This document shows, piece by piece, positions 23,261-28,089 of a stretch of DNA of 64,000 nucleotides. The DNA is taken from positions 288,001 through 352,000 of the forward strand of contig CAVUKB010000005.1 of NCBI GenBank assembly GCA_963741955.1. Reading direction: 5' to 3'. The DNA comes from an uncultured Acidobacteriota bacterium. Lineage in GTDB: Bacteria; Acidobacteriota; Thermoanaerobaculia; Gp7-AA8. The translations under genes were made by a program, and so were the position numbers. The notes beneath the pieces were generated by a model, which had not been told where the DNA came from, ran no database searches, and saw nothing but the letters and a program-made list of their open reading frames with translations. Numbering within the stretch: position 1 is the stretch's first letter; each line of letters opens with the position of its first letter.

Positions 23261-23677
23261 ATGATGAGGCGGTACTCGATACTGGTCCTGGTTCTGTTGC
23301 TGCTGGCGGCATGCAAGACCGTCGGCATTTCGCACCAAGATGGCGGATACGCCGAAGTTTCGGTGAACATCGCCCATCAGATGCTGCTCGACGACCGGCA
23401 GATCCTGGTCCTCGACATCCGTCCGGCGGAAGCGTACGCCGGAGCGACCGGTCACATCGCCGGATCGGTTTCCGCACCACTGGCGACGATCGAGCAGCGG
23501 CTGCCGCAGCTCATTCCGTATCAGAGCGGGACGGTTCTGGTGTACGGCGATTCCGAATCGTCGAGCAAGGACGCGTCGAAGCTCCTCGTCGCGTCAGGAT
23601 TCCGCAACGTCGTGCGGATCGAGGGCGGAATCGATCGATGGATTGAAAAGGGATACGAGACTGTTACCGTGCACTGA
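23261..23677 (+). CDS. Rhodanese-like domain lipoprotein
   Basis: LAAC lipobox; LDIRP..Y...GHIAGS and GGIDRW; active-site Cys absent. Confidence 0.75.
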   Translation: MMRRYSILVLVLLLLAACKTVGISHQDGGYAEVSVNIAHQMLLDDRQILVLDIRPAEAYAGATGHIAGSVSAPLATIEQRLPQLIPYQSGTVLVYGDSESSSKDASKLLVASGFRNVVRIEGGIDRWIEKGYETVTVH

Positions 23678-23705
23678 ATTTTCCCCGAGAGGCTCAGACC
23701 AGAGG

Positions 23706-24794
23706 ATGATGAAGAAGACGCTCGCTCTACTCGCACTCGCCGCCGCACTCCCGATCTCGTTGTACGCCGCACCTCCCAACAGGGTCACCGGCACCGTGGT
23801 CCACGACGCGAAGCTCGAGAAATACTTCGCCCGAGCGATGACCGTCTGTCCGGGATCGGCGCTGAAGATCGAACAGGCCGACCAGCAGGGACCCGCTGGG
23901 TTCATCGTCTACCGGGTGACGCAGACCTCCGCCGAATCGAACTGCGGCGAGTCGACCCTCGCGGTCGTCTCCCCCTCCTCGGGGCAGACGTTCATCGGAA
24001 GTGTCCTTCCTGTGCCGTTCGATCTGAGGCCGGTGGACAAACGGCTGGGCGAGATGGCCGGTCAGATGCTCAAGAAGCCGGTCCAGGCGTCGGTCTCTAC
24101 GAAGGCGTACGCGGACGGAGTACGGCTGGTGAGCCTGACCATCGATACGACGGAGGGACCGTTCTCGTATCACGGATACCTCGACAACTCCCAGCGATAC
24201 CTGATCGTCGGGCGCCGCGGAAACCTGAGCGTCGACCCCGGGAAGAGTCTTCTCGAAGACATCGCGGCTTCGACCGGCATGTCGAGAGGATCGAAGGACG
24301 GACCGATCGAGATCGTCGAGATCTCCGACTTCCAGTGTCCCACCTGTGGCCGCGCACATCAGCCGATGGAAAAGTTCTTCGAAGAGAACAAGTCGAAGAT
24401 CCACTACATCAGGCTCGATCTTCCGATCTTCGAACATCACGAATGGGCGCTTTACGCCGCACTCGGCGCACGTGCGGTGCAGAAAGTGGCTCCCGAGCAT
24501 TACTGGGAGTACGTGAACTACATGTTCCACAACCAGGAAGACATCACGCGCGCGAACGTCGACGACATGATCAAGGCCTTCGCCGGCATGGTCGATATTC
24601 CGTGGAAGAAACTGGAGAGCGTCTATCGCTCTCCTGCCGAGCGGAAGGCACTGATGGAACAGGTGGCGCGCGAGTACGACAGTGCGATCTTCGCGACCCC
24701 GACCTACATCGTGAACGGCCGGAACGTCTACTACGGCCACGACGGCGACTATCTCCACAGCTATCTGAACTCTCTGGTGGGCAAGAAGAAGTAG
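23706..24794 (+). CDS. DsbA/Thioredoxin_4 family periplasmic protein
   Basis: Signal peptide, SDFQCPTC, ATPTYIVNG. Confidence 0.85.
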   Translation: MMKKTLALLALAAALPISLYAAPPNRVTGTVVHDAKLEKYFARAMTVCPGSALKIEQADQQGPAGFIVYRVTQTSAESNCGESTLAVVSPSSGQTFIGSVLPVPFDLRPVDKRLGEMAGQMLKKPVQASVSTKAYADGVRLVSLTIDTTEGPFSYHGYLDNSQRYLIVGRRGNLSVDPGKSLLEDIAASTGMSRGSKDGPIEIVEISDFQCPTCGRAHQPMEKFFEENKSKIHYIRLDLPIFEHHEWALYAALGARAVQKVAPEHYWEYVNYMFHNQEDITRANVDDMIKAFAGMVDIPWKKLESVYRSPAERKALMEQVAREYDSAIFATPTYIVNGRNVYYGHDGDYLHSYLNSLVGKKK

Positions 24795-25071: not shown

Positions 25072-26733
25072 TCACGACCCGGCAGGTCCGGTCGACAACA
25101 GATCGATCGTCGGCCGCCGGTGCACCGCAACTGCCCTCCCGGACGGATCCGCTGACGCCGCGAACGCCGAGTCCCAGGCGATCGCGGCCGGCGTGCTGCA
25201 GGCGATGCTCGGGCCGCCCGGAACCAGTCGCGCGAAAGCATCTCCCGGAAAATGCCGCTCGAACATGCACCGGTAGAGATACCCCTCCGCCGTCACAGGC
25301 GGGTTGAGCGGAAACCGGGAGGCCGCGCTCGCGAGTGCGGCGTCGGAGATCTCCTCGCGCGCGAAGTTCTTCAATGCATCGATCCACCGGTAGCCGACAC
25401 CGTCGGAGAACTGCTCCTTCTGCCTCCAGAGAATCTCGGGAGGAAGATCGCCCTCGAATGCCGAACGGAGCACGTGTTTCTCGATCTTCCCATCCCGCGC
25501 CATCTTCTTCTCGGGATCCATCGACATCGCGAGATCGATGAATTCGCGGTCGAGGAACGGCACTCTCACTTCCACTCCCCACGCGGCCATCGATTTGTTC
25601 GCCCTCTGGCAGTCGTAGGTGTGGAGGAGCTCGAGTTTCCTCACTGTTTCCTCGTGAAATGCCCGCGCGTCCGGAGCGCGGTGAAAATAGAGATACCCCC
25701 CGAAGATCTCGTCCGAGCCCTCACCGGAGAGAACCATACGGACTCCAGCCGATCGAATGCGTCTGGCGAGAAGGTACATCGGAACCGATGCACGCACGGT
25801 GGTCACGTCGTACGACTCGATGTGGTAGATCACGTCCGAGAGCGCATCGAGTCCCTCCTCCACCGAAAACGTGAACTGCCGATGCTCCGATCCGATCGCT
25901 TCGGCGACGCATCGGGCCGCCTCCAGGTCCGGCGACTCATCCAGTCCGATCGCGAAGGAGCGGAGTCTCGCATCGGGATCGATCTTCCGGATCGCCCGTG
26001 CCGCAGTCTTCGCGATGATGGATGAATCGACGCCCCCGGAGAGGAGGACGCCCCACTCGACGTCACTCATCAGTTGGCGCTCGACCGCCGATGTCAATCC
26101 ACGCCGGATGTCGTGAATCCCTACCTTCCCTCCTTCGATGTTCCCGTACTCCCGCCATTCGCGCGGCTCCCGCGCGGTGATCACACCGGTGGCGCCGTCG
26201 AGAAGACTCCCCGGAGGGAACTCCTCGACGAATGCATCGAGCCCGGTCAGGCTCTTCACCTCCGAGGCGACGTAAAGCGCGCCCGATGCGGCGCGTGCGT
26301 AGTAGAGCGGTACGACGCCGACCGGATCGCGGCCGATCAGATACCGGCGGGATTCGCGGTCGTAGAGAACGAAGGCGAAGATCCCGTTCAGGTGGCTCAC
26401 CAGATCCACCCCATATTCGCGGTAGAGCGGGAAGAGCACCTCACAATCGGATTCACTGACGAACGGGAACGAAGGGAAGCGCTCGCGAAGCTCACGATGG
26501 TTGTAGATCTCACCGTTCACCGCGAGGACGAGGTTTCCGTTCACCAGCGGCTGCGCTCCGTTCTCCGGTGCGACGACCGCCAGCCGCTCGTGAACGAGAA
26601 CCGTCCGATCGTCCGCGAAGACTCCGCGCCAGTCGGGACCTCTGTGCCGCTGACGCCGAGACTGCTCGAGAGCGAGCTGCTTCAATCCGAGGGTGCCCTC
26701 GGGGGCATCGAGAATGCCGAATATTGCGCACAT
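25072..26733 (-). CDS. asnB: Asparagine synthetase B (glutamine-hydrolysing)
   Basis: MCAIFG (Ntn Cys2), HRGPD, NGEIYNH, SGGVDSS, SGEGSDEIFGGY, WRQKEQFSDGVG, DPSGRA; GAGGAGG SD; 553 aa. Confidence 0.96.
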   Translation of the reverse strand: MCAIFGILDAPEGTLGLKQLALEQSRRQRHRGPDWRGVFADDRTVLVHERLAVVAPENGAQPLVNGNLVLAVNGEIYNHRELRERFPSFPFVSESDCEVLFPLYREYGVDLVSHLNGIFAFVLYDRESRRYLIGRDPVGVVPLYYARAASGALYVASEVKSLTGLDAFVEEFPPGSLLDGATGVITAREPREWREYGNIEGGKVGIHDIRRGLTSAVERQLMSDVEWGVLLSGGVDSSIIAKTAARAIRKIDPDARLRSFAIGLDESPDLEAARCVAEAIGSEHRQFTFSVEEGLDALSDVIYHIESYDVTTVRASVPMYLLARRIRSAGVRMVLSGEGSDEIFGGYLYFHRAPDARAFHEETVRKLELLHTYDCQRANKSMAAWGVEVRVPFLDREFIDLAMSMDPEKKMARDGKIEKHVLRSAFEGDLPPEILWRQKEQFSDGVGYRWIDALKNFAREEISDAALASAASRFPLNPPVTAEGYLYRCMFERHFPGDAFARLVPGGPSIACSTPAAIAWDSAFAASADPSGRAVAVHRRPTIDLLSTGPAGS

Positions 26734-26766
26734 CTTCGTCTCCTCCTCTCCCGGATCCTTCCGGGC

Positions 26767-26798
26767 AAAAGAAAAGGCCCGCACGTTGGTGCGGGCCT
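26767..26798 (-). terminator. Attenuator terminator upstream of asnB
   Basis: AGGCCCGCAC-caac-GTGCGGGCCT then TTTCTTTT, ending about 33 nt before the asnB start. Confidence 0.85.
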
Positions 26799-26823
26799 CG
26801 TGTCAATTTCGAATGGAAAGGAT

Positions 26824-26949
26824 CTACACGTGCCGCACCGTATGCGCCCTGCGATTGTTCAGATTGAAGTTGGGACGTGCGTCGACGGCCGCGCGAGAGG
26901 TCACGCGAGCGGCAGAACGGACGACAGCCGGATCGGCGATGCGGGGCAT
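26824..26949 (-). CDS. Putative Asn-rich leader peptide of asnB (41 aa)
   Basis: MPRIADPAVVRSAARVTSRAAVDARPNFNLNNRRAHTVRHV*; its only four Asn lie within six codons, nine codons before the stop. Confidence 0.75.
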   Translation of the reverse strand: MPRIADPAVVRSAARVTSRAAVDARPNFNLNNRRAHTVRHV

Positions 26950-26958
26950 GAGGCTGAA

Positions 26959-26987
26959 AGAGTGCCCGAATCGGGCTCCCGAGTCAA
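26959..26987 (-). promoter_or_regulatory. Sigma70-like promoter for the asnB leader
   Basis: TTGACT-17 nt-CACTCT, ending 9 nt before the leader ATG; no SD. Confidence 0.5.
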
Positions 26988-27180
26988 CAGCAGCGGAGGC
27001 TCCCGCTATTCATCGGCATGGGACAGCTCGATGGGGGTTACGTCGTTTCGACGGCGCGCGGCATGATCCGGGTCGCTTCGGAGAGGAAGCCGATCGACGG
27101 ACGGCCGCCTTCGCGAGCCGGGACGATGAGTGCGGTCGTGAATCAAGGAGTGCGGTGCGCCGGGTCCGCGTGGCGCAGTT

Positions 27181-28089
27181 TCAGGGCCGCAGTCTGGAAA
27201 CGAGAATCTGGCAATCGGTACCGTAATCCCTGGCCACACAGTTCGTGAAATAGAGGGTCTTCCCGTCCGGCGACCAGCGAGGCGCCGTCGCGCGACCCTC
27301 CGTGTTCGCCACCAGACGAACGTTCGAACCGTCACTGTTCATGACGAAAATCTGGTAGCGCCCCCGGCGGTTCGACGCGAAGGCGATTTCACTTCCGTCC
27401 GGCGACCACTCAGGCCAGGCATCGAAGGCGGGATGGTTGCTCAGATTGCGAACGTGATTCCCGCTGGCGTCGGCGACGAAGACTTCCGAGTTCGTGTCGC
27501 CGATCATTCTGCGAAACGCGATCTGCTTACCGTCCGGCGACCATGACGGATAAGTGTTCACGCCGCCGCTGAGCAGGGTGGTGATCTTCCCGCTCGAGGG
27601 ATCAACGACGTCGATCTCCGCGGCGTTCTTCTTCGGCGGATGCAGATCGTCGTCGGTGCAATAGATAATGCTCCTGCCGTCAGGCGACCAGCGCGGATGT
27701 ATCGCGCGCACGCTATCCGGGGTCAGAGCCTTTCTGCCGCTGCCATCCGTGTTCATCGTGTAAATCGTTTCGCGTCCGGCCGAGAGCAGCACGAATGCGA
27801 TTCTCTTTCCGTCCGGCGACCATGCGGGGTCTTCGTGATCGGCATCATCATGCGTGATGAGCCTCTGTCCTCTGCCGTCGGCGTTCATCATGAAGAGCTG
27901 TTCCCGCCCTTCGAAGAGGGAGCCATAGATCATCCTCTTCCCGTCCGGCGACAGTGTGGGATCGAAATTCTCGGTATAGGTGAGCTGGTAAGGGATCGTC
28001 AGAGGCTCTGCGGCGAGCGCCGCGGCCGCTGAAAGCAGAATCACGGCGGCTTGCACGGCACAGAAGGCACTGCGAACGGACAACTCCAT
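27181..28089 (-). CDS. TolB-like PD40-repeat periplasmic protein
   Basis: Signal peptide and six P.(W/L)SPDG repeats; GGAGG SD. Confidence 0.88.
   Translation of the reverse strand: MELSVRSAFCAVQAAVILLSAAAALAAEPLTIPYQLTYTENFDPTLSPDGKRMIYGSLFEGREQLFMMNADGRGQRLITHDDADHEDPAWSPDGKRIAFVLLSAGRETIYTMNTDGSGRKALTPDSVRAIHPRWSPDGRSIIYCTDDDLHPPKKNAAEIDVVDPSSGKITTLLSGGVNTYPSWSPDGKQIAFRRMIGDTNSEVFVADASGNHVRNLSNHPAFDAWPEWSPDGSEIAFASNRRGRYQIFVMNSDGSNVRLVANTEGRATAPRWSPDGKTLYFTNCVARDYGTDCQILVSRLRP

Follow-up and report, generated by a model that had tools for sequence, protein, structure and literature searches.

A putative asparagine-sensing leader-peptide attenuator upstream of asnB in an uncultured Acidobacteriota bacterium

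Results and Discussion

The asnB gene studied here lies on the minus strand of a 64,000-nucleotide stretch of DNA (contig CAVUKB010000005.1, positions 288,001 to 352,000; hereafter the window) from an uncultured Acidobacteriota bacterium of the class Thermoanaerobaculia. It is preceded by a short open frame with clustered asparagine (Asn) codons and then by an intrinsic terminator. We consider it likely, with good confidence, that this leader is a ribosome-mediated transcription attenuator which makes asnB expression depend on how much charged tRNA-Asn is available. The original prediction, made from the letters of the window, had proposed such an Asn-tRNA sensor, and all the sequence-level elements of a classical attenuator are indeed found at the places it indicated. 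Judging from sequence and conservation, the attenuator is probably functional.

The leader contains four segments (Table 1) which are predicted to follow the classical layout, i.e., the pairings 1:2, 2:3 and 3:4. The proposed mechanism is as follows: (i) transcription would begin at the leader ATG (26949) or a few bases upstream, so that the mRNA for the leader peptide would be leaderless or nearly so; (ii) when Asn is plentiful, the ribosome would reach the TAG stop codon (26826-24) and cover segment 2 (26839-26826), segment 3 would pair with segment 4, the terminator would form and the transcript would be released at the U-tract, near 26767; (iii) when Asn-tRNA is scarce, the ribosome would stall on the four Asn codons (26871-26854) with its front edge about 4 nt short of segment 2, which would pair with segment 3 once the latter is transcribed, the terminator would be blocked and transcription would enter asnB; (iv) when the leader is not translated, a pairing of segment 2 with 26944-26938, at the 5' end of the frame, is predicted, and termination would be the default.

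The genome encodes an asparaginyl-tRNA synthetase (AsnRS; 479 bits for a cut-off of 342.6), thus free Asn is what charges tRNA-Asn. A single tRNA-Asn(GUU) reads both Asn codons. asnA was not found in this genome.

The leader frame and its Asn codons

The predicted peptide of the leader frame is MPRIADPAVVRSAARVTSRAAVDARPNFNLNNRRAHTVRHV. The only Asn codons of the frame are four in number and all of them are located inside six codons (26871-26854). All ATG frames of 15-70 codons were collected from the six frames of the whole genome: of these 32,394 small frames, three (the leader frame included) have at least four Asn in six codons. The other two are identical copies located in the AT-rich 5' end of an insertion sequence (IS) transposase gene, on another contig. 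Thus, outside this AT-rich 5' end, the sole small frame with such an Asn cluster directly precedes a gene for asparagine synthetase. The G+C content of the genome is 63.2%; Asn represents 2.05% of the codons in long frames, and AAT 31.5% of the Asn codons.

The two IS copies are found on contig C7 of genome G000, near 656449 and 64582, i.e., outside the window. Their frame (MISNNNNMVRLGHADHV) overlaps the start of the transposase gene (MPTTYRPYRPEQ...).

Terminator, antiterminator and their exclusive folding

The terminator corresponds to GAGGCCCGCAC-CAAC-GTGCGGGCCTT followed by TTCTTTT (TTTTCTTTT tail; 26799-26767). Its hairpin begins 24 bases past the stop codon, and 16 nt separate its U-tract from the ribosome-binding site of asnB, further downstream. 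Folded alone, it forms 10-11 pairs with an energy of -22.4 kcal/mol (z -5.9), a value reached by none of 200 shuffled sequences.

Segment 2 is complementary to the terminator 5' arm, thus the position of the ribosome would select between two mutually exclusive hairpins. In the fold of the leader with a stalled ribosome, 8 of the 11 bases of the terminator 5' arm are paired with bases of the leader frame. The antiterminator, i.e., the RNA past a ribosome standing on the last Asn codon and up to the terminator loop, has a predicted energy of -20.6 kcal/mol (z -3.0), a value reached by one of 200 shuffled sequences. When the 3' part of the frame alone is dinucleotide-shuffled, the same -20.6 kcal/mol corresponds to a z of -3.41, with 4 of 300 shuffles as good.

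The untranslated leader, from the AUG to the U-tract, is predicted to adopt the terminator state at -66.4 kcal/mol, in which 26839-26833 pairs with 26944-26938; forcing the antiterminator brings this value to -62.1 kcal/mol. Folding of the whole leader gives a z of just -1.76.

The spacing between the Asn cluster, segment 2 and the stop codon fits the dimensions of the ribosome. Between the last Asn codon and segment 2 there are 14 nt. Since segment 2 extends to the first base of the stop codon, a terminating ribosome would bury it.

Three elements described in the original prediction can be compared with these results. The 41-residue minus-strand frame, with its sole Asn residues arranged as N-F-N-L-N-N, has correct coordinates. 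The 10-bp hairpin with a U-tract before asnB is borne out (10-11 pairs by folding, 11 by the terminator scan). The exclusive pairing of GGUGCGG..CGUGU with ACACG....CCGCACC is exact, and the folding of both states agrees with it.

Table 1. Position of the features of the asnB leader and of asnB in the window
Feature	Position	Strand	Basis
Predicted -35 hexamer of the leader promoter, TTGACT	26982..26987	-	Sequence; -35 position in relatives
Candidate -10 hexamer CACTCT (17-nt spacer; 9 nt between it and the ATG)	26959..26964	-	Sequence; relatives
Leader peptide frame, 41 codons plus TAG (26826-24), ATG at 26949-26947	26824..26949	-	Sequence; counterparts in 12/30 class orthologues
Segment 1 (predicted), CCGCAUC, pairs with segment 2 in untranslated RNA	26938..26944	-	Minimum-energy fold, AUG to U-tract
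Asn codon cluster AAC-TTC-AAT-CTG-AAC-AAT, proposed stall site	26854..26871	-	Sequence; genome-wide rarity
Segment 2, antiterminator 5' arm GGUGCGG-CA-CGUGU	26826..26839	-	Spans the final five sense codons and the first base of the TAG
Segment 3, antiterminator 3' arm ACACG-AGGC-CCGCACC	26788..26803	-	Includes the greater part of the terminator 5' arm
Intrinsic terminator hairpin (segments 3:4)	26774..26799	-	Scan: 11 pairs, 8 G-C; fold -22.4 kcal/mol
U-tract UUUUCUUUU	26767..26775	-	Sequence; terminator scan
asnB Shine-Dalgarno region GAGAGGAGGAG	26740..26750	-	Sequence
asnB, glutamine-hydrolysing asparagine synthetase B, 553 aa, regulated gene	25072..26733	-	NF006949 match; N-terminal Met-Cys

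Conservation among asnB orthologues of the class

Among 61 related genomes, seven (that of the window included) contain a close asnB orthologue, with 57-62% identity. A short frame followed by a terminator is found upstream of asnB in six of these seven genomes (e.g., MFGPNRNDPNSNPARWDGAGGSLL, MTRLNRTNPNSNPLRPSGPGGLLL and MKRRNSNNATSNSLNTNFSATGGLLP). The sample was extended to 401 genomes of the class, of which 31 have an asnB orthologue, 30 of them with its N-terminus. A terminator was defined as a hairpin of -15 kcal/mol or lower whose T-run ends at a distance of 20-180 nt from asnB, upstream of it; a short frame had to have its stop codon 15-40 nt before the hairpin. Terminator and short frame together precede 12 of the 30 orthologues, a terminator only precedes one, and 17 have no terminator. 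The asnB-like paralogues of the same genomes were treated with uniform criteria (20 of 23 loci, i.e., those whose N-terminus aligned): the corresponding numbers are 0, 1 and 19.

The original prediction depended on the presence of the short frame and of its Asn cluster in orthologous leaders. It withstands this check: the leader precedes 12 of the 30 class orthologues and, among the genomes of the window's own family, is present in 6 of the 6 that have an asnB orthologue. Without locus L004 (genome G022, unpublished) these numbers become 11 of 29 and 5 of 5, respectively.

All 12 class leader frames contain Asn codons, which represent 51 of their 395 codons, i.e., 12.9%, to be compared with 2.05% in the window's genome. 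Nine of the 12 have at least three Asn in eight codons. AAT accounts for 16 of the 22 Asn codons of six class leaders, versus the share of 31.5% (calculated for the window's genome only); these rarer codons may sharpen the stall. The gap between stop codon and hairpin is 23-33 nt in the 12 class leaders and 20-33 nt across 14 loci. The last Asn codon is located 7-14 codons before the stop codon. The sequences of the leader peptides are not conserved beyond the Asn codons and the 3' end, which is constrained by the RNA.

The antiterminator is also predicted in the relatives: in the stalled-ribosome fold of 13 of 13 loci, the short frame provides partners for bases of the terminator 5' arm, and all z values are negative, 7 of them being equal to or lower than -2. 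It must be noted that a first shuffle design gave no antiterminator signal in 4 of 5 loci of Rhodanobacteraceae; the cut, made 10 nt past the last Asn, clipped the arm, and those loci are for this reason excluded from the 13-locus test. The duplexes between leader 3' end and terminator 5' arm have, over 13 loci, a mean of -20.9 kcal/mol for cognate partners and -17.8 kcal/mol for non-cognate ones, and the cognate duplex ranks first or second in 6 of the 13. Matched differences are seen between loci, i.e., CGGGGGG with GGCUCCCCG in L002, L004, L005 and L130, and GGAGGGGC with GCCCCC in L127. Changes in the terminator thus appear mirrored in the leader 3' ends, and look compensatory in kind.

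One locus of the sample (L125, G175:C3:114484-116163) has a match to the asnB orthologue with one in-frame TAG; no leader is found upstream of it.

Promoter region

The motif TTG[AC][CA] is found 36-41 nt upstream of the start of the short frame in 11 of 14 class leaders, which supports the candidate promoter of the window. Such a motif is expected by chance within this 6-nt range in about 2% of loci (estimate from base frequencies). In the class leaders xATACT-like hexamers end 6-13 nt before the start codon, and none of these leaders has a Shine-Dalgarno sequence. In the window, a Shine-Dalgarno-like purine run is absent from the 9 nt before the leader ATG. The leaders of Pseudomonadota (see below) have the same promoter geometry, with -35 elements of the TTGCGC type. 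Since the -35 position is conserved near the start codon and no Shine-Dalgarno sequence is seen, the leader mRNA is probably leaderless or nearly so, with a transcript start that we infer from these positions.

Points against the attenuator and alternative explanations

Several observations weigh against an Asn-sensing attenuator. (i) When the terminator 3' arm is included in the folding, the terminator form is favoured at equilibrium (-26.6 kcal/mol); read-through must thus depend on which helix folds first as the RNA is transcribed, an order that is assumed here as in classical attenuators. (ii) With 41 codons, just four Asn and one adjacent pair, the leader frame differs from the classical ones, which are shorter and denser. 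(iii) Three of the 12 class leaders hold just two Asn in any eight codons, and the 17 class orthologues without any terminator represent more than half of the 30. (iv) The antiterminator z is higher than -1 in 2 of 13 loci, and the cognate duplex of the window itself ranks only 9th of 13; the contrast between cognate and non-cognate duplexes is not decisive for G+C-rich RNAs, which pair easily with each other. (v) A MAFFT alignment of 14 leaders contains conserved blocks, but the registers of the helices differ between lineages, thus a column-wise count of covariations is impossible. (vi) The candidate -10 hexamer CACTCT is weak (2 of 6 positions matching TATAAT), and a consensus scan calls no promoter at the leader. 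The TTGACT-17-CACTCT promoter of the original prediction thus holds for its letters and positions, and is not called as a consensus promoter.

Among the other explanations, the first one accepts a genuine translation-coupled attenuator, not specific of Asn, in which general translation speed, stringent conditions or a protein factor would be sensed and the Asn codons would be minor. We regard it as improbable. No residue type other than Asn is shared by all 12 class leaders and those of Pseudomonadota, its level in the leader codons (12.9% vs. 2.05% in the genome) and the preference for AAT (16 of 22, vs. 31.5%) speak against a minor role, and the regulated gene makes Asn. The small number of Asn codons in the leader frame (four only), the three related leaders with just two Asn in any eight codons, and the richness of the leader frames in Arg, Ser and Pro are nevertheless on the side of this explanation.

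According to the second one, which has a still smaller probability, the frame would be open by chance and would be followed by an ordinary or partial terminator whose role would be to insulate asnB, to terminate a small RNA or to stop read-through from the gene of a TolB-like protein, with no sensing at all. Open frames are indeed common in DNA with 63% G+C (76 frames are listed in 7 kb), the -10 hexamer is weak, the promoter scan is null, the z of whole-leader folding is -1.76 only, and 17 of 30 orthologues manage without a terminator. However, a cluster found in only 3 of 32,394 small frames sits before a gene for asparagine synthetase. Moreover, 12 of the 13 class orthologues with a terminator have an Asn frame ending 23-33 nt before it, although their upstream genes differ, and none of the 20 paralogues is alike. 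As for a read-through terminator, 380 nt separate the end of the upstream gene from the hairpin.

The third one, i.e., a functional peptide such as a lasso peptide or other peptide made on ribosomes and modified after translation (RiPP) whose precursor would serve an AsnB-like enzyme, is very improbable and was rejected on the family scores: AsnB homologues do act as lasso-peptide cyclases and AsnB weakly matches NF033535, but with 131.8 bits, far under the cut-off of 525, whereas the profile search gives 733 bits (cut-off 499) for NF006949, the asparagine synthetase B equivalog; in addition, the gene has 53-64% identity with its asnB counterparts in Vibrio, Serratia and other genera, a terminator stands between frame and gene, conservation of the peptides is limited to the Asn codons and to a 3' end under RNA constraint, and the flanking genes (TolB-like protein, thioredoxin-like lipoprotein) include no leader peptidase. 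On its family score, the asnB product is a true asparagine synthetase B.

Occurrence in other phyla and phylogeny of AsnB

A scan of named public genomes gave 80 asnB loci, with 53-62% identity. Strong Asn leaders with terminators precede asnB in Dyella (2 loci), Rhodanobacter (3), other metagenome-assembled genomes (MAGs) of Pseudomonadota (2) and one MAG of Rubricoccaceae. The leader peptides are of the type ...LNNNANNNNRNRGRAGV in Dyella and ...RRNNNRANNNANRWRARA in Rhodanobacter, and those of Pseudomonadota hold up to 9 Asn. With these criteria, no Asn leader was seen before asnB in the sampled loci of Vibrio, Shewanella, Aeromonas, Serratia, Chryseobacterium and Bacteroidales, nor at the single Neomarinimicrobiota locus of the set (L096). 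The classification of all 107 loci leads to 18 «AsnLeader», 6 «weak» and 83 «none»; a Vibrio locus among the 18 is a likely false positive. This is locus L086 (Vibrio owensii), whose frame ...SNFNLNLHR, about 240-320 nt before asnB, resembles the PNFNLNN of the window; in the sister Vibrio loci this region belongs to the end of the upstream gene, which the frame probably reads in another phase. The Asn-cluster screen applied to 79 distant asnB loci was a loose one, and some of the flagged frames are probably not leaders (that of L084 starts at TTG).

Several leaders of other phyla share the pattern GUGUAG...ACACG...GGCCCGC with the window. In the leaders of the window, Dyella and Rhodanobacter, the TAG stop codon is preceded by a codon for Val or Ala, and the terminator is of the GGCCCGC... 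type. The upper helix which spans the stop codon is CGUGU/ACACG in the window, GCGUGU/ACACGC in Dyella and CGCGUA/UACGCG in Rhodanobacter.

In two Rhodanobacter loci (L049 and L050) the terminator ends 104-172 nt before asnB, i.e., farther than the 25-76 nt of the other loci. The gap contains the repeat GCGCAAG.GCAACCCC.GGCCATCC.TGG.CGA, twice in L049 and once in L050.

The phylogeny was obtained with FastTree from 108 AsnB proteins and must be treated with caution. The AsnB of the window (L001) has a long branch (0.64) inside a starred group of 36 rows, which contains most sequences of the class and one clade of Pseudomonadota. This clade, which includes Rhodanobacteraceae and other Pseudomonadota (L032, L033, L043, L049, L050, L053, L087), nests beside the leader-bearing L116, L120 and L123. 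The remaining AsnB of the window's family are found close to Longimicrobiales, i.e., in the tree's other half. The presence of the leader is clustered on the tree, with 8 changes vs. a mean of 16.9 for shuffled data (0 of 500 shuffles as low).

The position in the tree and this clustering give hints of a transfer of asnB with its leader between phyla. The stop-codon/ACACG helix and the GGCCCGCAC terminator shared with Rhodanobacteraceae, together with the nesting in the tree, point in the same direction, i.e., to a cross-phylum transfer of gene and sensor. The wider reading, namely a widespread and undescribed family of leaderless Asn attenuators which would travel with asnB, gene and sensor being transferred between phyla, is in our judgement evenly balanced.

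Comparison with known systems

To our knowledge, the regulation of Asn synthesis is poorly known beyond AsnC in E. coli and T-boxes in Firmicutes, and we know of no classical list of attenuator-controlled amino acids on which asparagine appears. AsnC controls asnA in E. coli, and the T-box controls Asn genes in Firmicutes. As proposed here for asnB, both put genes of Asn supply under the control of Asn status. The present case differs from them by the lack of a T-box match, an asnA gene not found, and no regulator gene adjacent to asnB.

A search of the region 26500-27300 for Rfam leader families (cmscan, Rfam 15, E<=10) gave nothing above the gathering threshold: the best score is that of Leu_leader RF00512 (24.3 bits vs. 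50), followed by Trp_leader RF00513 (17.8 vs. 41) and Thr_leader RF00506 (17.5 vs. 55). None of the 16 Rfam matches at E<=10 belongs to a T-box or riboswitch family, and 11 related loci gave no match at the gathering level. Within the literature searched, full-text searches and look-ups of Asn terms in the main text of papers found no leader-peptide attenuator for Asn, and gave at most mentions of asnB. The literature and Rfam results agree with the original prediction, whose author knew of no characterised example.

The asnB leader resembles the enterobacterial trpL, hisL, leuL, thrL, pheL and ilv leaders in several respects: (i) codons of the end product are enriched, and a terminator precedes the biosynthetic gene; (ii) the antiterminator shares the terminator 5' arm, and the ribosome position would pick the fold; (iii) the predicted 1:2 pairing would lead to termination when the leader is untranslated. 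On the contrary, it is predicted to sense Asn, it has 41 codons with a sparse N-x-N-x-N-N cluster, its promoter abuts the ATG and no Shine-Dalgarno sequence is present, i.e., it is apparently leaderless, and its host belongs to Thermoanaerobaculia. Within the literature searched, the asnB leader is thus apparently a new amino-acid specificity and an apparently leaderless variant of trp/his-type attenuation. Together with the examples of Pseudomonadota, it would add a new amino acid to the repertoire of leader-peptide attenuators.

The mechanism of the classical attenuators is summarised in the introduction of the preprint bioRxiv 10.1101/834739. According to the same preprint (Canestrari et al., bioRxiv 10.1101/834739), mycobacterial leaderless short frames with polycysteine sense cysteine and act on translation, by freeing a sequestered ribosome-binding site. 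They are, within the literature searched, the closest published leaderless sensory frames. The similarities are a frame located at or near the 5' end of the transcript (by inference in the case of asnB), the use of the codons of one amino acid, and the control, proposed for asnB, of the metabolism genes of that amino acid through ribosome pausing. Relative to this published description, the asnB leader would sense Asn and has a terminator with a U-tract between frame and gene. Since this terminator is canonical and separates the two, control of asnB is most likely transcriptional.

The asnB leader would thus offer a testable account of asnB control in a hardly studied soil lineage. It is predicted to be a compact natural sensor of Asn-tRNA, with a sensory frame apparently translated without a 5' untranslated region.

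Start of asnB and neighbouring genes

The ATG at 26733 yields a protein with an N-terminal Cys (MCAIFG), and this catalytic residue (Met-Cys) fixes the start of asnB. The GTG at 26784, which opens the longest frame inside the terminator, was rejected as a start since the ATG at 26733 gives the N-terminal Cys. As the longest frame opens inside the terminator hairpin, automated calling could mis-start asnB and hide the attenuator. The leader itself is missed by automated annotation.

The neighbours of asnB are, upstream, the gene of the TolB-like protein and, on its other side, that of the thioredoxin-like lipoprotein; no regulator gene is adjacent. The convergent gene at 23643-24791 (plus strand) has a weak match (56 bits for a cut-off of 190) to the Rcas_1661 family of thioredoxin-like (seleno)lipoproteins. 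A tRNA-SeC is present in the same genome as this (seleno)lipoprotein candidate.

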